In this document: in pieces, positions 1,451 through 44,755 of the stretch | Layout of the letters: each line of letters starts with the position of its first letter | Numbering within the stretch: position 1 is the first letter of the stretch | From: Escherichia phage saus132 | Length of the DNA: 64,000 nucleotides | Strand: one strand, 5' to 3' | Sequence record: NC_047884.1 | Notes under the pieces: model-generated | Told to the model about the DNA's origin: nothing | Database searches by the model: none | What the model saw: only the letters and a program-made list of their open reading frames with translations | Position numbers and translations under genes: made by a program

Positions 1451-1484
1451 CAGCCAGGTTGCTAGTCGACCTGGCTTTTATTTT
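1451..1484 (+). terminator. Rho-independent terminator after nrdD
   Basis: Hairpin CAGCCAGGT-loop-ACCTGGCTT followed by a T-rich run. Confidence 0.6.
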
Positions 1485-1486
1485 AT

Positions 1487-1515
1487 TTGCTTTCGAGCTA
1501 AAACTTAGGTATAAT
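1487..1515 (+). promoter_or_regulatory. Early sigma70-type promoter
   Basis: TTGCTT, 17 bp spacer, TATAAT; upstream TTTATTTGCTTTC resembles the PN25 -35 region; RBS AAGGAGGG before ATG 1533. Confidence 0.5.
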
Positions 1516-12977: not shown

Positions 12978-13006
12978 TTGACATTTTCGCCGCTTAGGTA
13001 TATACT
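12978..13006 (+). promoter_or_regulatory. Near-consensus sigma70 promoter between the two ligase ORFs
   Basis: TTGACA, 17 bp spacer, TATACT. Confidence 0.55.
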
Positions 13007-22114: not shown

Positions 22115-22143
22115 TTGGCAACTGCTCATAATTATTGTATAAT
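22115..22143 (+). promoter_or_regulatory. Early promoter (first of a tandem pair)
   Basis: TTGGCA, 17 bp spacer, TGTATAAT, then ATACACATAAATTTGAGAGAGAAAG. Confidence 0.45.
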
Positions 22144-22214
22144 ATACACATAAATTTGAGAGAGAAAGTTTCGGATTGATAAGAAAGTCCGAAGCAGAAA
22201 AATAAAAATTGTAC

Positions 22215-22244
22215 TTGTCAAATCCTCCCGATTTAATGTATAAT
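22215..22244 (+). promoter_or_regulatory. Early promoter (second of a tandem pair)
   Basis: TTGTCA, 18 bp spacer, TGTATAAT, then ATATACATAAATTGATGAGAGA. Confidence 0.45.
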
Positions 22245-28328: not shown

Positions 28329-29654
28329 TTATGAGTTATCTGGCGTAATGAGCTCGCTCACAAGTTTTTTCAGTTCGTCTAGCTCTTGTTCTAAAGTAGC
28401 AACTTTTAGTTTCAATTCGTCTGTTTCCTTCTGTTGCTTATCATTATCCTCAATTATTTCTTTAATTGCGTTGGTGAGTAACGCCGTCACACCTGCATAG
28501 TTAATTGAAAGATAATCCGTGTCTGCTACTTTGTAGACAGCTTCTGGTAAAACAGTTACAACGTCTTGAGCAATTAAACCAGCTTCTTCCGTGTAAAAAG
28601 AATGTTCGTTTTCCTCTAAGCTATTACGTTTGAAGTAGGTGTATCCCTGTAAGACTTTAACTTTATCTTTTGCGGATACTATTTCTTTTAACTGAGCTTT
28701 AAGGCGTATATCAGATGTGCTTTGCCATGCGACGGCCGTAGCTTGTCCCGCGCTATTGAAACCATAAGATGTATTTCCAACTAGAAGACGCTGGTAGGGG
28801 TTCCCATCCCCATAAATAACAACATCAGCGCCAGATGCAAAAGTATCACCCCATCTAACTGATTTCCAAATATTTACACCGCCGTCCCTAGACGGGATTT
28901 CCACTAACAGACCAGCCGCCCGATCTCGCCATTCACCATGACCGCCAGCTTGCACTTGACCCGCTATAAGCGCACTACCGGCCCCAGCACGAACACCGTA
29001 TACATACATACCACGAGAGTCATTAGGCGCTGAACTGGAGATAGCGCGTAGGGTGGAAAATCCATTCCCATTAAAAGTACAGAGATTAAGTGAATCGGTA
29101 TAAACATCTAAAACACCATCACTACGCTGTGCAAATCCAGTGTCACTATCACCAATAGCAATAGATCGAGCACCTAAACCCTGTGCGTCACCCGGAGTAC
29201 CAATTGACATACGATCGGTTACTGCTAATGTTGCTGTACGGGATTTGCCAGAAACACCCAAAGCGTTAATAGATAAAAGCCCTGAATTATTGAACGTACA
29301 ATATGATTCTATATTATTTGATAGATTCTTAGTGTGAATTACGGTTTGGGTTTCACCAGTGGCACCATTAATCGCATTATAAAAACGCGATTGGGAACGT
29401 GCCGAGCCTGACGTAGAATATAATGTACTATGATAGATCCCACCATTAGTAGATTCAATATCATAACGAGTAAGAGCATTAACACCGCTAAAGGTAACAG
29501 TTTGACCTTCGCCTAATCGAAGATTAGTACGAGCACCGTTTACATCTGTTGCACCTGTACCGCCAGCACCAATAGGAAGAGCTGATGTAGCGTTATCGCT
29601 ATTTCTAGCAACTCGCCAATCGCCATTATTAGCAATCCGGAGTTCATATGTGGC
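28329..29654 (-). CDS. ltf: L-shaped tail fibre, C-terminal part in frame with upstream ORF (no own start); ends in intramolecular-chaperone (S74) domain
   Basis: Frame open and in phase from the TAA at 29655-29657 down to 28329 (2928 nt overall, divisible by 3); no ATG/GTG before the track's TTG at 29261; C-terminal LKAQLKEIVSAKDKVKVLQGYTYFKRNS is S74 chaperone-like. Confidence 0.7.
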   Translation of the reverse strand, partial: ATYELRIANNGDWRVARNSDNATSALPIGAGGTGATDVNGARTNLRLGEGQTVTFSGVNALTRYDIESTNGGIYHSTLYSTSGSARSQSRFYNAINGATGETQTVIHTKNLSNNIESYCTFNNSGLLSINALGVSGKSRTATLAVTDRMSIGTPGDAQGLGARSIAIGDSDTGFAQRSDGVLDVYTDSLNLCTFNGNGFSTLRAISSSAPNDSRGMYVYGVRAGAGSALIAGQVQAGGHGEWRDRAAGLLVEIPSRDGGVNIWKSVRWGDTFASGADVVIYGDGNPYQRLLVGNTSYGFNSAGQATAVAWQSTSDIRLKAQLKEIVSAKDKVKVLQGYTYFKRNSLEENEHSFYTEEAGLIAQDVVTVLPEAVYKVADTDYLSINYAGVTALLTNAIKEIIEDNDKQQKETDELKLKVATLEQELDELKKLVSELITPDNS

Positions 29655-31256
29655 TTATGGGTTAGTAAATGCGTTATAATCACCTAAAGTAGTTCCAGTT
29701 GTTTGTCTAACAGAATCAACGCCGAGATTCCCTCGAGCTGAAACTTTATCTGTAAGGTCCGCGAGGTTCTGGTCCTTTTTCAAAGACGCTTGCATAACCT
29801 GTGCTGCAGATGCAGCCGCTGTCTCCGCTCTATCTGCTGCACTGGTGGCGTTAGTAGCTTTCTCACTTGCCGTTGTAGCGCTACCAGCGGCCTCTGTAGC
29901 CTTTTGCGTAGCTGTGGTAGCCTTTTGTGTAGCTAAAGCCGCAGCATCTTCTGCTGCTTCTCTCAGCGGTGTCATTGCGTTCAGTGATTCAGTTTTAGCA
30001 GTATTAATAGCGTTAACACCAGCGACCTTGGCTGTGTTAACACCACCAATCGCGCTAGATTTAGCACTTCCTATTGCCGTTAACGCTGCGTCTTTTGACT
30101 GGGTAATGCTGGTTGTTGCATCCGTTTTAGCGGTATTAATTTCTCCAACAGCACCGTCTTTAATAGTTTGCGTGTCGCTCTTTAACTGCTCAACGTCGGA
30201 CTTAAGATTCTGTACTGTGATCACAGCTTGCATAGCAGTACTCGCGCTACCTGATGCAGCTTGTTGAGCTAACTTAGCAGCGTCTTCACTAGCTTTTGAG
30301 TTAATTTCGCTAGTCTTTGCATTAGTTTCTGAATTTTTTGCTGCTAATGCTGATGTAGAGGCTTGTGTAGCGAATGTTTCTGCTTCATCTCTGAATCCTT
30401 TGGATTCAGAGGCAGAGGCAGCGGATAGGGCAGCATTAGTCTCACTATTTTTTGCTGCTGCTGCATATGCTGCTGCATTAGTCTCACTAGTTTTTGCCTT
30501 AGTCTCACTAGTTTTTGCATTAGTCTCACTAGTTTTTGCATTAGTCTCACTAGTTTTTGCCTTAGTCTCACTAGTTTTTGCATTAGTCTCACTAGTTTTT
30601 GCTGCTATTTGTGATGTAGCAGCAGCATTTTTACTTGCTAATGCATTAGTTTCGCTAGTAGCAGCATTCATAGCCGAAGTAGCTGCCGCTAATTCGGAAG
30701 CTTTAGCGTTAGTCTCTGAAACTTCAGCGTTAGTCTCAGAAGTTTTTGCTGCTGTTTGTGAAGCTGCTGCCGCATTTTTACTTGCTAATGCATTAGTTTC
30801 AGAAGTCTTGGCATTAGTCTCAGAAGTTTTTGCGTTAGTTTCAGAAGTTTTTGCTGCGTTTTTGCTTGCTAAAGCTGCTATTTCAGAAGCCTTAGCACTA
30901 GTTTCAGAAGTCTTGGCATTAGTTTCTGAAGTTTTAGCATTTGTAGCAGAAGTTGCTGCGGCTGTTTGAGAGGCGGCAGCTGCATTTTTACTAGTTAATG
31001 CATTAGTCTCGGAAGTCTTAGCGTTTGTCTCAGAAGTTTTTGCATTGATTTCTGATGTTTTTGCAGCATTCTCAGAATCTTTTGCTGCCGCAGCAGAAGC
31101 AGCAGAGGCCTCAACAGCCGCTGTTAGTTGACCAGCAGTAATAGAACTAATAGAATTACCTAAAACTACTGTATATTTAGGATACTTACTAGCAGTAGTT
31201 GTAGTGTCATCTATGTTCAGAGTCTGCTGTACAATAATTTTAGTTTTAAGTGCCAT
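29655..31256 (-). CDS. ltf: L-shaped tail fibre (pb1-like), N-terminal 533 codons ending at an in-frame TAA
   Basis: N-terminus [17 protein letters not shown]...; about 30 heptads of AKTSETN type; fibre motif NLADLTDKVSARGNLG. Confidence 0.8.
   Translation of the reverse strand: MALKTKIIVQQTLNIDDTTTTASKYPKYTVVLGNSISSITAGQLTAAVEASAASAAAAKDSENAAKTSEINAKTSETNAKTSETNALTSKNAAAASQTAAATSATNAKTSETNAKTSETSAKASEIAALASKNAAKTSETNAKTSETNAKTSETNALASKNAAAASQTAAKTSETNAEVSETNAKASELAAATSAMNAATSETNALASKNAAATSQIAAKTSETNAKTSETKAKTSETNAKTSETNAKTSETKAKTSETNAAAYAAAAKNSETNAALSAASASESKGFRDEAETFATQASTSALAAKNSETNAKTSEINSKASEDAAKLAQQAASGSASTAMQAVITVQNLKSDVEQLKSDTQTIKDGAVGEINTAKTDATTSITQSKDAALTAIGSAKSSAIGGVNTAKVAGVNAINTAKTESLNAMTPLREAAEDAAALATQKATTATQKATEAAGSATTASEKATNATSAADRAETAAASAAQVMQASLKKDQNLADLTDKVSARGNLGVDSVRQTTGTTLGDYNAFTNP
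30300..31080. repeat. Tandem 21-bp repeats inside the tail fibre gene
   Basis: Perfect copies of ATTAGTCTCACTAGTTTTTGC around 30476-30603 with degenerate copies on both sides. Confidence 0.85.
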
Positions 31257-31678
31257 TATTTAGTTACTCCATCGCTGATGTATACTTTACCTTCCATAAT
31301 ACGGAAAGAATTGACTTCAGAGCCAATCACATCACGAGTCATTAGGATATCATAATAACCAGCAAAACGTTGTCTTGGGTTATACTTATCACGTTCTTTA
31401 GATGCTTTTTCACCAATATTAGTAGTGTCTACAATGGAAAGACTAATTGCAGCAGCACCTTGAGCAGCATCAATAACATGAGTTTTAAAGTTAGCTAGAA
31501 CCTCGGCGTTCTCATCTAGACTAGATTTAATAGTTCCTCGGAGTGAATATCCGGTTAAGTTAATAGGAACTTCTGTTGGTGGATATACACTGTCGTCAAC
31601 ATCCATAAACTGCATGATAAGACCATAAGGCACTTTCTCATCAACAATAATATCAATAACTCGGTTTTCTGTACTCAT
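31256..31678 (-). CDS. Tail-tip collar protein (T5 p132-like)
   Basis: 140 aa, position between baseplate genes and fibre; stop overlaps fibre start (TAATG). Confidence 0.55.
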
Positions 31679-31683
31679 TATAA

Positions 31684-33741
31684 TTACCTTATATGGATAT
31701 ACCCACTATTTAGGTCTATCTTCATCTTGTAGTATGCTTCAGGGTTTCCTGATAACGCAGCATTTCTATCGTATATTATATTAACACCTATTTGTGATAA
31801 GAAGGCATTTCCTGCCACAATCTTATCAGCAGTTACAGTTCCATTAACAATCATGTTGCCATGAAGAACCATTGCAGGGTTAATCCATCCACCCCCGTTC
31901 CATTGGCGGGTAAATGCTGTTTGTGGAGCATTACTGTTAAATTGTGTTAAGACATCGTATTTAACTGGAGGTTTTCCAAAGTTATTTTGGAAGAATGCAT
32001 TAGCCTGTCCATCATCCCAACCACCTAATCCAGGAATACCCATGGAGTACATCCCAGGACCACGCTGTCCATCACGCCCTATAGTACCTTCAGTACCACT
32101 CCACTGAACCACATCAGACCAGCTAGTACCTTCAAGAAGTTTGTTAGTAACTGGATCAAGTGTACCAGTAGTAGTATAGATATTTTGTGTCATATCTGTA
32201 CGATTAGGTGGAGTTTTTGACCAACCAGGAGGTGGATAATCTTGTTCTAGCGGTTTGGTGGGTAGAGATGTTGCTAACTTATAAACAAATACTGTTTGTT
32301 TACCCTGTAATCCAGTACCAATATCTACGTCACCATTTGGTGTTCCAATTACTACACCACTAGAAATACGTAGGGTAGTACCATCATAACGTATCCATTG
32401 TGTAGCATTACCAATATCTAATTTAGCTTTGGCAGAGGTATTATCCATGCCCATCCAAATACCAGAGTTATTATCTCCCCAAGATTTACCTTGAGTGTAA
32501 ATTGCTGGATTATCTTTACCAGACAAGTTAGTCATAATAAAGTTTGCAGCATTAATATCTCTAGTGATTACTTTACCATCAACGTTAACAACACGGTTTA
32601 TAGGGTCGAAAGAAATAGGTGCTTTACCTTCTCTATCTAGCAGACCAATGTTAATAGCACCAGTAGCTGCATCAATTAGGAATGTTTGTCTCCATATTTC
32701 CCCATCTTTCATACTACCCTTAATAAAGGCATAGTTAACATCAATACCCGTCTCATTGACAAAACTATTATCTAGAGGAGTATCTTCATTCAGAATAAAT
32801 GTTACAGGAGCTGATTCTGTTATATCTTGTTTGTTTGGTCCCCAGGCAATTGATGAAACCTTAAAGGTATGTTCAACTTTCCATGGGAATGATATAATCG
32901 TTGCAGCTCTAGCAGCACCCACGTTTATCTTTTGAGCTTTAGCCCATCCGGTTTTAGCGTATTCCTCGGAGTTTATATAAGTAACCAAGAACTCACGAAC
33001 ATTAGCACCAGCACCGCGTTCCCAATCCCACTCAATTCTAACATCATATCGTTCTTTACCATCAGCAATTCGTGCAGCTTTAAAAACAATATCGATAGGT
33101 GCAGTAGGAGGAACAAAATTATAAGCTACAGTTAGAATACTAGGGGACTCATAGTAACCAGAAGAATCAACTGTAACACCATCAGGCATAGTTACTTGAC
33201 CAGATATTCTGATCTTATAATCTCCGATAGGAACTCCACCAAATTTAATAGTAGAACCTAAAGCCCCAATGTAATACTTAGTCCAAGGACTATCTTCCGT
33301 GGCTGTACTTTTTAACTCAATAGTACAGTAACTTGCTTCACCAGTAGTTTCCACAACAACTATCGGTGCGCCCACCCCAACATCCACTGGTTCTGACTCA
33401 GACCTTGCTGTAACAATTATTGGCTTCTCTTTTGTTTTAAAGTTAGTTTCATTAGAGAGGTTAATACCAATTTTTGCATTTAAAAGTTCTGAGTCAATAA
33501 TTGAGTCATAAAAAGCTCCCTGAACCTGATAGGTAGTTGAGGGAGTTAAATTATTGATCATAACAAAGAAAGTGTCGATCCCAGTGAAATCTCTTCTATC
33601 CACTTCTTCGCCAAGTTTAAGCCAGAATGATCTACCGATAACATCGTAGTCGGTATAGATAGAATGCTGGATATACGCCATCGTATACCCAGTCATAATA
33701 CTATTTAAGACCATCTTGGCTGGTGCATTATTAGAAATCAT
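31684..33741 (-). CDS. Baseplate/central fibre protein (T5 pb4-like)
   Basis: 685 aa; synteny downstream of hub protein; size close to remembered T5 pb4. Confidence 0.6.
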
Positions 33742-36591
33742 TTAAATAGATGCCCAATCCACAGATTGCTCGCCATTATCACCTTCTGCTCTTATACGGA
33801 AGCGTAACTTCCTATTAATACCTAGAGCATCCTCGTTATGAAGAGCATAGTCTGCCTTATTGTATATCAGTAGATAATCGTAGACATACTGATCTTCAAT
33901 TCGTACACTTCTTAATAAACGATCTAGGTTATCGTAGATTTCGAGAGTGTAGAAGATTCCATCAATGATATCTTCTTCTGGAATTCTATCCCAGGCCAAC
34001 TTAACGTCTGGTCCTACAAACTCCGATGCATCTCCTGAAGCTGTATTAGTAACCCTGAAATTACTAACGACGCTTAAGTTTTTAGCAGAGTTAAGTTCTA
34101 CCGATAGTGTTACAGGAGAACTTCGTCTACCATTAATATCTACAGCTCTAATCTCAAAGACTGCTAAACCAGCAGGTTCTCCAATAATTTCTTGGATCAT
34201 TCGTAGATTTGGATTAGTTTCTAGTTGCTGTACGATATAAGGATCAGCATGTCCAGAATGAACGATGGAGTAATAAACAACGTTATTAGTTAAGCTAGGA
34301 AGCCAAGATAGCTCACCATTCTTACCAATAGATCCTACTTGTCCACCCGGTGTTGGTGTGTACATAAAGTCTCTAGGGGGCAGTACGTTATTACTAACAT
34401 CAGGGATATCGTTACCACTATTATCAACCTGCTCGGAGTTAATGAATACATCCTCACCATACTCTTGCAGTGTAATATTAATCTTACCTTCTCTAGAGTT
34501 TTCAACTTCATCAACTAGGAAGTATTTCTTATCCCAACCATAACGACCATATGTAAAAGCAACCGGATCGTTAGGCTCAATACCTATGAAATGATATGGT
34601 AATGAGAATGTGAGAGTTCGTGAGTAACGAGATTTTTTCAGTTCTCTATCTGCAAAGCTACGTGCAGTATAATAGTTAGTGATGTTTGCAAAAGAAAGCT
34701 GAAGTTTTTTATCTAATCCTTTATCTTGTTCTTTAAATACAGAATTAAAGAATGTGATAGAGTTAGTTTTCCAACTTAATGCAGGATCTAATATAGAGGC
34801 TTGTACTGAGTTGAATTTATTTCTGCCAGTAGTATCTGACAATTCCAGATCACCATAGGTATCTAAGAAGTCAATCTCCAGTGGAGTATTCGAGAACTTC
34901 TCAACAGTTATTCTATACTGACCAGATAAGTTGTTGATAGCACCCCCATAAGACTCTATTAATCCCTGCACGTTTTTAAATACTGACTCAGAGGTATCGA
35001 GAATAGTGTTCATTTGAACTATTTGTCTATTCTCTCCTACAGCATCAGTCCATCCAACGTATCTCCAGTAGGGTTGCCAAGAAACCTGATAGGATTCATC
35101 AATTATATCCAGAATAGCTGCTTCTTGAATAAGTTGCTGGAGAGGGAACTGATCAATAGTGATATTAGCACCATAGCGATCAGAGGTTAGGTAGTCCAGA
35201 GTTTGCCAGATACCATTTAAGCTAGTCTTATCAGCAGTTACTCTACCATCTGAATGATAGATCTTAATCTTCTTACCTTGAACTTCAGCGCTAACTTCTG
35301 GAATTTCTGTTCTGTTTTCATTAATAGTAAAGCGAACAATAGCGTAAGCAGTATCTAACAGTTTATAACGAGAGTCCCAGTATTCTGGTCCATTCTCATT
35401 CATGTTCTGTAGGTAGAAACCTTTCTCTTTTGCAATGTTAACTAGAACATCCGCAGCAGATTGGTCTGCTTTACCATGATAAGTCCAGATACGTATATCG
35501 CCATTACCATCGTTATACCTATATTCCTGTCCATGAACAGAGGGTTCAGAGCTTGATTGACCAGAAGCAATACGTTGCATGGTATCTCCAGCTACTTTCT
35601 TAGTACCAAAGCAAGTACGAGACTTACTATCGTTAGGATCAATACAGATCATTGGTACATCACCAAAGTAGAAATCTAGAAATCCATCAATCTCACCCTC
35701 ACAGAAGGCGTATACTATATATACGATATTAGGGTTATGCAGCTCAGTATCCGCAAATACGGGGATTCCAGGGATTTTCTGAGTTCCATACACTACTGGA
35801 AGGAACTTAGCCGCTAAGTTAAAATCGATGTCAACTTCCTTAGTCACAGTCTCATAGTATTTCTTTAGGCTATAGCTTCTAGAAAGACCAAATAACTTTT
35901 TCTTAGACTGTAACTTGTAACGCTCTTCCTGAACCTGATATTTAGCAAGAATAGAAATACTCTTGTTAGCGTGGAAGAATCCATAGTCCTCTTGATATTC
36001 AGGTCGCTTAGCACCATTAGATGGAACTAATTGGCCAGCAACAATCTCAAGTCCCCTATGGTCAGCATCGTCTGTGAAACGTCCGTTTACTCTATCAAAG
36101 TCGTAAAACTGGTTCGAACAGTTCCATGTGATAGTGGATGTGCTAATTCCAGAAGTACCAATGTTATCCTTAATACCACCACCAGTGATTTTACCACGGA
36201 AGTAAAGTAAAGGACCATTAGTGTCTGGATCTACAGGAAGAATGTTACCTTCTTCATCAATAACCGCTTGATGGATTGAGATGGATCTATCTAGGAATGA
36301 TACACCATTTTGGACTAGTTTTAATACTTCATCCTCAGCAGTACCTGTGATAGTAAAAGAAAGACTACCAATGGAAAGATCTCTATTTTGTTTATGTGTT
36401 GTTATAGACTTAACCTTACCGGATGTATAAAGAATCCCATTATATCTTACATCTCTAAAATAATCTGTAAGATATATGTAGGCAGAACTTGATCCAGTAG
36501 AGCTTGGCAATTCAAGAGTAATAAGGCATGCAGTTTTTATTTTATTATTAGTTCTTAAATACTCTCTTGCACTGTCAAGAATTTTCTTCAT
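33742..36591 (-). CDS. Baseplate hub protein (T5 pb3-like)
   Basis: 949 aa, matching remembered pb3 size; lies between distal tail protein and pb4-like gene. Confidence 0.7.
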   Translation of the reverse strand: MKKILDSAREYLRTNNKIKTACLITLELPSSTGSSSAYIYLTDYFRDVRYNGILYTSGKVKSITTHKQNRDLSIGSLSFTITGTAEDEVLKLVQNGVSFLDRSISIHQAVIDEEGNILPVDPDTNGPLLYFRGKITGGGIKDNIGTSGISTSTITWNCSNQFYDFDRVNGRFTDDADHRGLEIVAGQLVPSNGAKRPEYQEDYGFFHANKSISILAKYQVQEERYKLQSKKKLFGLSRSYSLKKYYETVTKEVDIDFNLAAKFLPVVYGTQKIPGIPVFADTELHNPNIVYIVYAFCEGEIDGFLDFYFGDVPMICIDPNDSKSRTCFGTKKVAGDTMQRIASGQSSSEPSVHGQEYRYNDGNGDIRIWTYHGKADQSAADVLVNIAKEKGFYLQNMNENGPEYWDSRYKLLDTAYAIVRFTINENRTEIPEVSAEVQGKKIKIYHSDGRVTADKTSLNGIWQTLDYLTSDRYGANITIDQFPLQQLIQEAAILDIIDESYQVSWQPYWRYVGWTDAVGENRQIVQMNTILDTSESVFKNVQGLIESYGGAINNLSGQYRITVEKFSNTPLEIDFLDTYGDLELSDTTGRNKFNSVQASILDPALSWKTNSITFFNSVFKEQDKGLDKKLQLSFANITNYYTARSFADRELKKSRYSRTLTFSLPYHFIGIEPNDPVAFTYGRYGWDKKYFLVDEVENSREGKINITLQEYGEDVFINSEQVDNSGNDIPDVSNNVLPPRDFMYTPTPGGQVGSIGKNGELSWLPSLTNNVVYYSIVHSGHADPYIVQQLETNPNLRMIQEIIGEPAGLAVFEIRAVDINGRRSSPVTLSVELNSAKNLSVVSNFRVTNTASGDASEFVGPDVKLAWDRIPEEDIIDGIFYTLEIYDNLDRLLRSVRIEDQYVYDYLLIYNKADYALHNEDALGINRKLRFRIRAEGDNGEQSVDWASI

Positions 36592-37202
36592 AGACTTTCC
36601 CTCAAGGAAAGTGAAATACCAGTATATGTACCATTGCTATTTAACGTAGAGCCGAAGCTATCTCCATTCATTAATTTAGTTCTAAATAGAATACCATTAA
36701 ATACCGGTTTCTCACTACCCGTAGTAGTAATGAATAGATCAGGATAAACACTTATATTCCAAGTATTTCCTGCTGTGTTGATAGAAGTGATTTTATACAC
36801 TTTTGGATGATTGGACAACTTAAATAAATCGCCTGGTTTAGGCAGTCCACGAAGTGTACCTTTAGTGTACATAATAACTGTTGAACCTTTTTGTCCAGCA
36901 GGAATATTTACAGCACTAGTATCACCACGAACTCGGAAAGCCTCATATTGTGGTAATAACACATCAATATAGCTACCTGTTCTTTTATAATCTAGGATGA
37001 ATGAGTCTAATTTAGCAAATTCATCTGGGAATAATTCTGGATAAGAGATATTAATACCCCAATATTGAGCAGACACCTTAACCTCCCTAACTTTACCATT
37101 GGGTAATTCATCACGAATCATAGGGTCATTGTCTACTAAGTTAACGCTTTCAAAACCTAACCCTGATAGCTCTGGGTTCGTGTATGGGTCTGGTAGTCTC
37201 AT
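36588..37202 (-). CDS. Distal tail protein (T5 pb9-like)
   Basis: 204 aa, immediately downstream of tape measure gene. Confidence 0.7.
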   Translation of the reverse strand: MRLPDPYTNPELSGLGFESVNLVDNDPMIRDELPNGKVREVKVSAQYWGINISYPELFPDEFAKLDSFILDYKRTGSYIDVLLPQYEAFRVRGDTSAVNIPAGQKGSTVIMYTKGTLRGLPKPGDLFKLSNHPKVYKITSINTAGNTWNISVYPDLFITTTGSEKPVFNGILFRTKLMNGDSFGSTLNSNGTYTGISLSLRESL

Positions 37203-37227
37203 AGTTAATTTCTCCTCTTAATAACAA

Positions 37228-37256
37228 TATTATAATAGGATTGGAAAATTTTATCA
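37228..37256 (-). promoter_or_regulatory. Sigma70-like promoter upstream of distal tail protein gene
   Basis: Minus strand TTGATA, 17 bp spacer, TATAAT, then RBS AAGAGGAG. Confidence 0.4.
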
Positions 37257-37284
37257 AGAAATTTTTATTTTTCCATAAAGAAAA

Positions 37285-37305
37285 GGAGGACATAAAGTCC
37301 TCCTC
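37285..37305 (-). terminator. Terminator-like hairpin after tape measure gene
   Basis: Minus strand GGAGGAC-tttat-GTCCTCC followed by TTTTCTTT. Confidence 0.5.
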
Positions 37306-37310
37306 CAGTA

Positions 37311-40300
37311 TTAAGAATTACCAAGTGATTTCAGGGTGGTTCCATTCTCATTAAGAGCCTGTTCCACGGCATCCCTGAAAGCAGCACTGTTACTCGAAGC
37401 AAAGTCTCGGAAGCTAGCCGCATCCATCGTACTGATGTTCAGCACAATAGGTCTACCCGATGTACTCTTTGAAGATCCTTTGAGTTCATCAGTAGGAGTA
37501 GCCTTCATCGGAACCATAGGAGTGATTACTTCGGTACCATGCTCACCCATCTGGTAACTAACTCCAGGGTACATATTACCACCTTCTGCACGAGGTACGA
37601 AAGAGTTCGCATTACCAATCCCTTGATCTCCTCTAATATAAGAAAGTTCTCCTGCGTTAGCCGACATAGAAACGTCCACGTTCTTCTGGCGCTCTCCAAG
37701 AGACAAGTATTGAGCTGTATCAGTACCCGAGTCTCCAATAGAAGACATACCAGATGCAGAGGATGCTTGTGCAAGAGACAATGCACCTGCAACACCTGCG
37801 GCAATCATAAGAGGAATAGACCAGGGGTAGGGAACAGCTGTTGCTGCTTGCATCACCGCTACTGCCGTCTGAATAATGATTTGCTTCTTAGCTGCATCCT
37901 GCTGGATCTTAACCTTTTCCGCTTCCAGTTTCTTGAGCTTAGCTTTAGATGCTTCGGATTTACCGTCACGTTTTTGCTCTGCTGCAATAGCCTGATCAAT
38001 AGCGGATACTTGATTACTTACTCCCATAGCGATCATTGAAGAAACCATCTGCATACCCGCTGCCACAGTGCTAACAGTATCTAAAGATCCCTGAGAGAAC
38101 TGCATCATGGCATTAGTAAGATTGCCTATACTCTGGCCAACTTCCGTTGCTTGGCTATTTAATGCTCCAAGCTTAGAAATAGCTTCGTCGTAAGAGGCCA
38201 TCTGGTTCTGCATATCAGCATACTTCTTATCATCCCCGGATAAACCAGTCGTAGGAGTATAAGTAGCTCCAACAGAAGAACCTACCTGTTGCTGCATCTG
38301 AGCATCTCTCTGTTTTTTAAGCTGTTCTAGGGCTGCTGAAGTTTTATAAATCTCATTACGATATTTAATTTCTTCTTCAGTATTGTCTTTGGATAACTCT
38401 AACTGCTTTTCTGAAATCGATAACCTTTCAGTAAGAATCTGAGACTGGCCAGTGACATTTCTCTCAGTTTGACTAACCTCTAAGGCATCCATGAGAGCTG
38501 ATACATGAGTAGCGGTAGCTTGTTTCTCTGCTTCCACGAGTTCTCTATTTATCTGTGCTTGAGCACGCCTAGATTGTTCAGCCTCTTTCTGTTTACCAGC
38601 TTGTCTAGAGTACCACGCATACTTTTCTTTCTCAATAGTCAGTTCTAGTTTTAACTGTGCTAAACGATACTGGGTATCTGTCATAGTACGGTTATTCAGG
38701 AGAGCAATTTCACGATCAACACCAAGAATCTTATCCGTATAGTCCTTAACTTTCTTCTGAGCTTCCATGTCCTGGTTAGTAATTTTGATACGTTCTAACT
38801 GAACCTTAGCTATTTCATTCTCAATTGCCTTGTTACCCTTGTTAGTTTCTAGGACACGCTTAAGGGCTGCTTCCTGTTCTTCTAACTGTTGGATTTCTAG
38901 ACGTCTACCCGCTTCCTGTGCTTTCTCTTTATCCTTGGTCTGGTTGTACACTTCGGCAATCTTTTGCTGAACTTCTAACTGATTTTTAGTCTCATTACTA
39001 GTTAATTTTACATAACCAGCAAGAGCTTGTGAGGCAGTCTTCATCTCACTAAGAGTATTATACCCTAAGTTCAGACTCTTAACATACTCATCAGCATTTT
39101 TACCAGTACCAGCAGATAGAGACTCAATAGTCTTAATCGTATCTGATAGGGATGCACTAGTTTTAGCCGCAGTATTAGTATTCTGAGCGATGTTCTGTAT
39201 ATCGTTAGCTAAATCACTAGCAGTTTTCTTAGCCTGATCATATGCTTTCTGCTGTTCCGTCAGTCCTTTCAGAGTTGCGGAGTTAAAGTCATAAACCGCA
39301 TCAGGGTCATTCATATCCTTCTGCAGATTAATCTGCTTCTGAAATTCTGGATTAGTCTTAGCAGCCGCAGCACCAGCAGCTTGATACGCAGATTTCCAAG
39401 CATTAAGGTTTTCAGTAGAGTCATCAACTTCTTTACCTAACCTTGCTACCTGTAGTCCCATAGCTGCGGTTTCTTCTACAAACTTTTTGTTAGCTTCGGA
39501 AGAACCTATGCGCACTCCCCCTACTTCAAATCCCCCAGCAGCTAATCCAACAGGCATCCCCTCACCCACTAATCTAATAGCGGCAGCAGTACTAGCATCT
39601 GCTTGGGACATACGTTTATCAAACTCAGTCTTTAGTTTATTACGCTTATCCAGAGACTCTTTATACATATCAAGAGCTTTATTATATCCTTCCTCGGAAG
39701 CGGAAAGACTTAAAGCTACAGCACCAACGTTAGTTGGGTCAATCTGACGGTTAGTTTCTTCTTGTGCTCTAGCAGCAGAAGCCGAGATAGATGCTTGAGA
39801 AGTATAGAATACTGCGTTAATAGAATCAATTACCGGCCCTAAATACTTAGCAGCAGCCTGTTGAACCTTTCTTAGTGCAGCATCAGCGTTAGCAGCAAAC
39901 TGTTCCCATGGAGTTGCACGGAGTACGTCATCCAAGTAGCCGAAACGTTTAGTAGATTCAGCAATTACTGCGTTAGCATATGCTTGTTGCTTTTGGAAAG
40001 TGGAAAGACTATTGACGTTATATGTGATACCTGTGTTAGCAGCATTTAACTGTTTAACGTAGTCAGCGTAAGCATCATTAAGACGAATAGTAACACCAAG
40101 TTCGTCCAGAAGTTCGATTTCTTGTTTAGATACACCTTTGATTACACGGTTAAGTGCATCAGTCATATCAACACCAAGAACAGCAGCAGCACGACGAGCT
40201 ACTAGACCAAATTTATTAAGTTGTTCAGCATCGAATCCATATGCAGAAGCAGAGGATGCCTGTCTCATTGCTTCTTCGAAGGAGATTGCATAACCAGCAG

Positions 40301-41018
40301 CCTCTTGTAGAGATCTAGCTAGAGTTTGTACCGGAGTACCTGTTTGAGTACCTACAATAGTACCGAACTTCTCCAGACGGTTTAACTGGTCACCCATCTT
40401 AAGTTGTTCGAATGCAGATTGTAGAACGAACACGTTAGATGCGATAGCAGCATACATAAGAGGTAGAGAACCACCAACTTTAGCCATTGCTGCGAAGTCA
40501 CGAGTAGCACCACGTGCAGAACCAGATGTATTACCTAGAGCACGACTAGCACGACCTGCGGATGTGGTAGTATCATTGAAGCCTCTAGTAGTACCCGACA
40601 AAACACGGTTTGTATCGTATAATCTATCTTGAACTTTTTCAGTTGCAGCAGCTACATCGTTACCCATCGCCTTAACAGATTTACCAACATGTGTAAATCC
40701 AGACTCTAGCTTATCGGATACCTCAATCATAGCAATAGCAAGGTCATCTAACTTAGCACCAATACTATCTATAGATTTGGTGATACCCATCATACCTCTG
40801 CTAGCCTGCATTTTAGTTAGGCTTTTAGCTGCTCTATCCGCTGCCCTCTCAATGGAGTAAAGAGTTTTGGGCATTTTTCCTAGCTGCTCATTAGTCAGTT
40901 CGGAAGCGGCAGCAGCATTTTCTAACGCATCGGAAACGTTCTCAATAGATTTTGCAGTACGGGTTGCCCCTTTCTGCTTTACATCTATAAGTAGTTCTCG
41001 TATTAGCTTATCAGTCAT
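37311..41018 (-). CDS. Tail tape measure protein (T5 pb2-like)
   Basis: 1235 aa, largely helical/coiled-coil; between chaperone ORFs and distal tail protein. Confidence 0.85.
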   Translation of the reverse strand: MTDKLIRELLIDVKQKGATRTAKSIENVSDALENAAAASELTNEQLGKMPKTLYSIERAADRAAKSLTKMQASRGMMGITKSIDSIGAKLDDLAIAMIEVSDKLESGFTHVGKSVKAMGNDVAAATEKVQDRLYDTNRVLSGTTRGFNDTTTSAGRASRALGNTSGSARGATRDFAAMAKVGGSLPLMYAAIASNVFVLQSAFEQLKMGDQLNRLEKFGTIVGTQTGTPVQTLARSLQEAAGYAISFEEAMRQASSASAYGFDAEQLNKFGLVARRAAAVLGVDMTDALNRVIKGVSKQEIELLDELGVTIRLNDAYADYVKQLNAANTGITYNVNSLSTFQKQQAYANAVIAESTKRFGYLDDVLRATPWEQFAANADAALRKVQQAAAKYLGPVIDSINAVFYTSQASISASAARAQEETNRQIDPTNVGAVALSLSASEEGYNKALDMYKESLDKRNKLKTEFDKRMSQADASTAAAIRLVGEGMPVGLAAGGFEVGGVRIGSSEANKKFVEETAAMGLQVARLGKEVDDSTENLNAWKSAYQAAGAAAAKTNPEFQKQINLQKDMNDPDAVYDFNSATLKGLTEQQKAYDQAKKTASDLANDIQNIAQNTNTAAKTSASLSDTIKTIESLSAGTGKNADEYVKSLNLGYNTLSEMKTASQALAGYVKLTSNETKNQLEVQQKIAEVYNQTKDKEKAQEAGRRLEIQQLEEQEAALKRVLETNKGNKAIENEIAKVQLERIKITNQDMEAQKKVKDYTDKILGVDREIALLNNRTMTDTQYRLAQLKLELTIEKEKYAWYSRQAGKQKEAEQSRRAQAQINRELVEAEKQATATHVSALMDALEVSQTERNVTGQSQILTERLSISEKQLELSKDNTEEEIKYRNEIYKTSAALEQLKKQRDAQMQQQVGSSVGATYTPTTGLSGDDKKYADMQNQMASYDEAISKLGALNSQATEVGQSIGNLTNAMMQFSQGSLDTVSTVAAGMQMVSSMIAMGVSNQVSAIDQAIAAEQKRDGKSEASKAKLKKLEAEKVKIQQDAAKKQIIIQTAVAVMQAATAVPYPWSIPLMIAAGVAGALSLAQASSASGMSSIGDSGTDTAQYLSLGERQKNVDVSMSANAGELSYIRGDQGIGNANSFVPRAEGGNMYPGVSYQMGEHGTEVITPMVPMKATPTDELKGSSKSTSGRPIVLNISTMDAASFRDFASSNSAAFRDAVEQALNENGTTLKSLGNS

Positions 41019-41039
41019 TTATTTTTCCCAATAAAAAAG

Positions 41040-41064
41040 GCTCTGGGCAAATCACCCAGAGCCA
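41040..41064 (-). terminator. Hairpin plus T-run immediately upstream of tape measure start
   Basis: Minus strand GGCTCTGGGTGATTTGCCCAGAGCC followed by TTTTTTATTGGGAAAAATAAATG. Confidence 0.55.
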
Positions 41065-44269: not shown

Positions 44270-44755
44270 TTATCTGCGAAGTGACCTACGTGGAGGCTGA
44301 TACCTCACTGTTACATTTATTTCTGCTAAACCATATGGGGCCAGTAGACCCTCATCTGTACTAACTGATGTAATGCTCATATCAGTCGCCTCACATGGGA
44401 AGGTCGATCCATTAGGTTTACTAACAGTATATTCTAAATTTCCACCTGTGTCAATAACGGTTTTTATATCCGCTACGAGTTTTTCAAGTTGCTCTTGAAT
44501 GTCTGTTTTCTCTTTATCGTACACCAGGATTGGAAGTTCTAAAAACATCCACTGTTGGCCTGAAGGAAGATACTGCCCAGTTTCAGTTCCGATATGGACT
44601 GCCACATAAGGAAATTCTCGGATTTCCTCGAATTTATAAGTTTGACGAGAAACGTTTCCATAAAGGTTATTGAAATACTCATCAGGTTGTGAACCATCCA
44701 TTTGTGTGGCGATTCGGTCAACCACTGCTTGTGCAATACTTGTTCTGTGATCCAT
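44270..44755 (-). CDS. Tail terminator protein (T5 p142-like)
   Basis: 161 aa ORF immediately upstream of tail tube gene. Confidence 0.5.
   Translation of the reverse strand: MDHRTSIAQAVVDRIATQMDGSQPDEYFNNLYGNVSRQTYKFEEIREFPYVAVHIGTETGQYLPSGQQWMFLELPILVYDKEKTDIQEQLEKLVADIKTVIDTGGNLEYTVSKPNGSTFPCEATDMSITSVSTDEGLLAPYGLAEINVTVRYQPPRRSLRR

Follow-up and report, generated by a model that had tools for sequence, protein, structure and literature searches.

The intergenic region described here has a close counterpart in bacteriophage T5. In the T5 records NC_005859 and AY543070, a 'promoter P-G 25' is annotated at 92013-92087, between T5.140 (pb2) and T5.139 (pb9), and a 'putative rho-independent transcription terminator' lies at 92087-92113, in the same gap between the tape-measure protein (TMP) and distal tail protein (Dit) genes. 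The record of Salmonella phage S114 lists a 'T5st0mutant P-G 25 like promoter'; at the TMP/Dit gap, a promoter and a TransTerm terminator are annotated for AKFV33, and a terminator for Stitch, VAH1 and BB1. The activity of PG25 during infection has been followed by applying multiplex primer extension to RNA of E. coli cells infected with T5 (Klimuk 2020); the promoters tested were already known from in vitro transcription assays with the E. coli enzyme (PMC7472727). Transcripts from PG25 and PJ5 were seen from 30 min and those from PG25 kept accumulating, which places both promoters in the late class; the level of PG25 transcripts was down about five-fold in a gpT5.026 mutant, parallel to the phage yield (PMC7472727). 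Promoter activity and late timing in T5 have therefore been demonstrated by others. Away from the phage, Pg25 has been put to use on its own in Cupriavidus necator, as a constitutive promoter.

We analysed a stretch of 64,000 nucleotides from Escherichia phage saus132 (NC_047884.1), hereafter the window, for which a sequence-only reading had proposed an internal terminator and promoter between the tape-measure and distal tail genes. Five 'Bacteriophage T5-like' isolates (Epseptimavirus, Demerecviridae) match a 1.5-kb query around the gap at 100% identity, and over 400 T5-like phages match it at 76-99%. The gap itself can be linked to PG25 because of the T5 GenBank annotation and the sequence identity; a full-text literature search with the promoter sequence gave no match. 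The two gaps separate orthologous genes, are 97% identical and share the hairpin, the -35 and -10 hexamers, the spacer length and the A/T-rich upstream region. Three positions differ: one base after the stop codon (C for T), one base in the spacer (C for A), and one A fewer in the window just upstream of the Shine-Dalgarno sequence. The phages themselves belong to different genera, Epseptimavirus for the window phage and Tequintavirus for T5, and differ in host range. The proposal of an internal terminator and promoter is thus borne out by the annotation of the orthologous gap in T5, and the check it suggested, start-site mapping late in infection, has in effect been carried out there, since primer extension was positive for PG25 (PMC7472727). 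The feature is already known, a textbook element of T5 that has here been found again. Functional statements about the window phage are carried over from T5 on account of the near-identity of the gaps, and with that qualification we consider it very probable that the gap is the orthologue of the T5 terminator and PG25 module and works as proposed below.

Layout of the intergenic region

In this part of the window the minus strand is the coding strand, and it carries all elements of the gap. The gap measures 108 nt (37310..37203) and is preceded by the TMP gene (37311..41018, minus strand), which encodes a T5 pb2-like protein of 1235 aa and ends with the stop codon TAA at 37313..37311. The protein matches PHROG 3779 'tail length tape measure protein' (E = 0), and related records annotate it likewise. 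The gap is followed by the Dit gene (36588..37202, minus strand), encoding a T5 pb9-like protein of 204 aa that matches PHROG 1302 'distal tail protein' (E = 1e-65), again in agreement with related records; it would be the first gene of a PG25-like transcription unit.

About 5 nt after the TMP stop codon (four bases lie between), a hairpin begins that occupies 37282..37306 on the minus strand. Its 5' arm GGAGGAGGAC (37306..37297) and 3' arm GTCCTCCTTT (37291..37282) form 10 pairs, 5 G-C among them, around the 5-nt loop TTTAT (37296..37292), and the consensus scan identified a U-run behind it, TTTTCTTTAT (37275..37284), of which the first three T (37284..37282) double as the base of the stem. 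RNAfold assigns about -15 to -17 kcal/mol to the local fold, and its MFE and centroid structures both include the hairpin. With a G+C-rich stem-loop and a U-run after a stop codon on the transcribed strand, the sequence has the form of an intrinsic (Rho-independent) terminator. Known structured RNAs were considered and set aside. An Rfam scan of 36900..37600 with a permissive E-value returned no family at the gathering threshold, the only two hits being ctRNA_pND324 (25 bits vs 45) and SraG (20 vs 50). A function on the plus strand was likewise rejected: the hairpin lacks a T-run on that strand and credible plus-strand genes are absent nearby.

The T-run is followed by an A/T-rich region, GGAAAAATAAAAATTTC (37258..37274, minus strand), located directly upstream of the -35 hexamer. 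This '-43 region', of a kind that is typical of T5 promoters, resembles an UP element and may act as one. An AAAAATT motif upstream of the -35 has been reported for T5-like promoters (PMC3326045). The -35 hexamer TTGATA (37252..37257) and the -10 hexamer TATAAT (37229..37234), both on the minus strand and both the same in T5 PG25, are separated by a 17-nt spacer (37251..37235). An inverted repeat around the -35, GGAAAA...TTTTCC, was examined as a candidate operator and discarded, being not kept even within Tequintavirus, where several phages have TTTTCT. T5 promoters in general carry A/T tracts in their spacers. Between the -10 and the Shine-Dalgarno sequence, the minus strand reads ATTGTTATT. 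From promoter geometry only, we infer that transcription starts at the A at 37222 (minus strand), 7 nt past the -10, which implies a leader of 20 nt. The Shine-Dalgarno sequence AAGAGGAGA (37211..37219, minus strand) stands 8 nt (37210..37203) before the ATG at 37202..37200, and the record of phage Stitch annotates an RBS at the matching position. Both halves of the original description, a hairpin with a T-run after the tape-measure stop and a TTGATA-17-TATAAT promoter with a strong RBS ahead of the distal tail gene, are therefore found in place. The strand, which had been left unstated, is the minus strand, and the span given (37228-37305) runs from the hairpin through the -10, with the RBS just outside it.

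Conservation across the Demerecviridae

Between Epseptimavirus and Tequintavirus the gap is 92-99% identical, compared with 74-88% for the flanking coding DNA (600 nt of the TMP gene upstream, the distal tail gene and the start of the hub gene). Since it is more identical than the neighbouring genes, the non-coding gap is under tighter constraint than the proteins encoded on either side. Beyond these two genera, we compared the gap between TMP and Dit in about 14 separate lineages of the Demerecviridae, in which Dit identity falls as low as 42%; phages of Klebsiella, Serratia and Proteus are represented, as are several groups of Vibrio phages. The sampled gaps are all 107-171 nt long, and in every one a hairpin with a T-run (-10 to -18 kcal/mol) begins 3-11 nt past the stop codon. 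The hairpin is followed, at a distance of 20-27 nt, by a -35/-10 pair with a score of 9-12 of 12 and a spacer of 16 or 17 nt; the -10 is TATAAT in all lineages but one, in which it is TATAGT. Spacers and leaders cannot be aligned among these lineages although the hexamers are kept, and the stems are unrelated (GGAGGAC, GGGAAGAC, GCCTCC, CCCTGC, GGGGC, CCCGAC, GGGCTACC and others). When nine hairpins were aligned with MAFFT, an alignment that is imperfect where the most remote of them are concerned, 7 of the 10 predicted pairs showed double changes that preserve pairing. Such a pattern looks like conserved function without conserved sequence, and it supports the putative terminator as well as the promoter.

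We found no statement of this family-wide terminator-promoter architecture, with its fixed distance from hairpin to -35, in the literature examined, and regard it as a small addition. The pair might represent an ancestral, family-wide 'expression reset' of the Demerecviridae, with two terminators isolating TMP as an island of low expression, and the distance of 20-27 nt could have been kept because the T-tract and A-tract double as an UP element. We offer this idea tentatively, as possible rather than probable.

Several further observations were made in passing. In Vibrio phage Ceto-like and related lineages the leader from the -10 to the distal tail ATG is about 90 nt, as opposed to about 25 nt, and contains further inverted repeats, for example CCATTGA...TCAATGG, that might form an additional regulatory structure. 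The record of Salmonella phage SP3 (MG387042) lacks 24 nt at about 1480..1500 of the locus, including the distal tail Shine-Dalgarno sequence and ATG (TATAATATTGTT|AGATTACCA), probably as a result of an assembly error or a deletion. Finally, records named 'Listeria phage LM 4-14-1' and 'Corynebacterium phage CPphiVTCCBPA_418' are 92-98% identical to the T5-like region, and 'Campylobacter' records are also among the sequence matches; these labels are likely host misattributions or contaminants.

Alternative explanations

Could promoter and hairpin be functionless chance matches in an A/T-rich gap? Weak promoter-like sites are as frequent as in shuffled sequence: over 30-45 kb (15 kb), a simple scan returned 44 sites of at least 9/12, compared with 42.5 in shuffles, so that in a genome of 40% GC the pattern alone proves little. 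The site in the gap, however, scores 11/12 in a consensus scan for sigma-70 promoters (TTGACA / TATAAT, 16-18 nt spacing). When the 108-nt gap was shuffled 5000 times with its dinucleotides preserved, only 0.3% of the shuffles attained such a match, and the energy of the hairpin was matched by 0.05% of 2000 gap shuffles. Sites of at least 11/12 number six in the whole window, against 2.4 +/- 1.7 in Markov-simulated sequence, and four of them fall in the non-coding 11%. Moreover, the gap is conserved above its flanking genes, about 14 lineages share its architecture despite unrelated sequences, and the T5 orthologue of the promoter is active in vivo. The elements are non-random, and we give coincidence practically no credence. 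Just as negligible is the possibility that the site binds RNA polymerase in vitro or on plasmids and is irrelevant in infection, with the tail-tip genes using late promoters far upstream. It would be in keeping with the history of the PG25 series, whose members were originally described from cloning and transcription in vitro, and with the fact that primer extension on infected cells yielded products for just 11 of the 19 promoters known from in vitro work (PMC7472727). Yet PG25 is explicitly among the in vivo positives, with late kinetics and a drop in the gpT5.026 mutant (PMC7472727).

The one live alternative accepts the promoter and concerns the hairpin, which may be mainly a 3'-end or RNase barrier that stabilises the TMP mRNA, or a leaky attenuator. 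The tail-tip genes would then be fed by read-through and by PG25 together, and their expression boosted rather than uncoupled. Consistent with this, the terminator is labelled 'putative' in every record, the U-tract TTTTCTTTAT is interrupted, and the tail is poorer in some lineages (for example ATAATATCT in Vibrio phage Ceto). Literature searches found no usable T5-like transcriptome, TSS or 3'-end datasets. On the other hand, a GC-rich stem of 8-10 bp with a short loop and a U-run just after the stop codon is the canonical form of an intrinsic terminator, and hairpin and T-run are retained in all sampled lineages, with compensatory changes. We therefore judge a leaky or merely protective hairpin to be improbable, and it departs from our preferred explanation, a terminator followed by PG25, only in degree. 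Drawn from sequence and comparative evidence only, the terminator role is a putative one and its efficiency is presumed.

Expression of the tape-measure and tail-tip genes

The TMP gene appears to be flanked by terminators on both sides. A second terminator-like hairpin, GGCTCTGGGTG-ATT-TGCCCAGAGCC followed by TTTTTTATTG, lies at 41039..41063 on the minus strand, between the tail-assembly-chaperone and TMP genes; in a terminator scan it has 11 pairs, 7 of them G-C. T5 has a putative rho-independent terminator annotated at the equivalent place, and differs from the window in that the HNH endonuclease gene T5.141 is inserted at the chaperone/TMP junction. The consensus scan found no promoter-like site between this hairpin (41063..41039) and the TMP ATG. 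With a terminator-like hairpin upstream and no promoter-like site behind it, TMP is apparently transcribed by read-through only; its Shine-Dalgarno sequence, GGGAAAAATAAATG, is weak.

Downstream of the Dit gene, and likewise on the minus strand, PHROGs identify a pb3-like baseplate hub (36591..33742), a pb4-like central fibre (33741..31684), a collar protein of 140 aa (31678..31256) and an L-shaped-fibre-like gene (31256..28329). The junctions between these genes are tight or overlapping, and the genes in 28329..36591 are therefore presumably served by the PG25-like promoter as one transcription unit, whose extent, like the exact start at 37222, we infer. Between 37200 and 31256, the only terminator-like site returned by a simple scan was a weaker one with a tail of just 5 T, at 33692..33667 within the pb4-like gene. 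In a separate observation, the L-shaped-tail-fibre-like gene is interrupted by an in-frame ochre stop (CAA->TAA) at codon 534 (29657..29655), where the sibling chee130_1 has a single CDS of 975 aa. Over 14.5 kb nothing but this stop sets the window apart from chee130_1. Among the five near-identical isolates the stop is found in poul149 (MF431738.1) only, and by this single base the window is matched to the last 64 kb of that record. The stop probably reflects an error in sequencing or else a variant without the fibre, such as laboratory stocks of T5 give rise to.

Taken together, these elements suggest how the region may operate. Late transcripts from the head and tail-tube genes would be thinned by the strong terminator ahead of the TMP gene, and those remaining would be halted, at least partly, by the intrinsic terminator just past the TMP stop. 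Host sigma-70 RNA polymerase would re-initiate about 25 nt further on, at the near-consensus promoter with its A/T-rich upstream region, and a leader of roughly 20 nt with a very strong Shine-Dalgarno sequence would lead into the distal tail gene and then the hub, central fibre, collar and side fibre. The level of tail-tip expression could in this way be set independently of the upstream tail genes, and the TMP gene, with 3 copies of its product per virion, would form a low-expression island between two terminators. The sequence-only reading had suggested that tail-tip expression is uncoupled from the upstream tail genes. As regards the level of expression this is a reasonable interpretation; as regards timing it does not hold, because the genes on both sides are late, so that any uncoupling concerns amounts.

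The T5 virion contains 3 copies of TMP, 6 of Dit, 3 of the hub, 3 of pb4, 12 of the collar protein p132 and three side fibres (PMC10038345). The tube protein encoded upstream is present as many trimeric rings in a long stack. A scheme in which TMP depends on read-through and the tail-tip genes on PG25 would fit these copy numbers and could account for the stoichiometry. One would expect a near-consensus sigma-70 promoter to be active from the moment of DNA entry, yet PG25 is late in T5 (PMC7472727), and the mechanistic account of this behaviour is incomplete. More speculatively, the fixed geometry of hairpin and promoter might carry a signal that silences the promoter until late infection.

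PG25 is a classical strong T5 promoter that has been annotated and validated as late in vivo, and as a discovery the present locus carries little weight. What our analysis adds is that the module is more constrained than its neighbouring genes and that, across the Demerecviridae, its architecture is kept rather than its sequence. The placement of TMP between two putative terminators, with no promoter of its own, offers a simple and testable rationale for the ratios of structural proteins. The locus also bears on the question of how near-consensus sigma-70 promoters stay late in T5, although it brings that question no nearer to a test.

Comparison with known systems

Within T5, the nearest parallel to PG25 is PJ5, the other late promoter validated in vivo, which is also internal to the late tail gene block. 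Unlike PG25, PJ5 lies within coding sequence and has neither a preceding terminator nor a dedicated strong RBS. The window holds a counterpart of PJ5 at 44454..44426 on the minus strand (TTGACA-17-TATACT, 11/12), inside the ORF 44755..44270, a T5.146-like tail gene. Three more sigma-70-like promoters of at least 11/12 were noted on the plus strand in intergenic positions of the early gene block (22115..22244 and 12978..13006); they are presumably the counterparts of known T5 early promoters.

The leader of PG25 is familiar from another context. The T5 pb9 leader, ATTAAAGAGGAGAAATTAACTATG, is letter for letter the ribosome-binding leader of 'T5 promoter' vectors of the pCA24N/pQE type, from which the leader of the window (37203..37222, minus strand; ATTAAGAGG...) differs by one missing A. 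In these vectors the leader is joined to a different T5 promoter, which carries lac operators. We take the vector RBS ('RBSII') of the pQE type to be derived from the PG25 region; a literature search for documentation of this origin found none.

Lambda-like siphoviruses share the order of these genes, with chaperones, tape measure, distal tail protein, hub and fibres following one another. In lambda, the late genes form one antiterminated transcript without known internal promoters. The Demerecviridae differ in that the late block is split by a terminator-promoter pair, exactly at the junction between the TMP and Dit genes.
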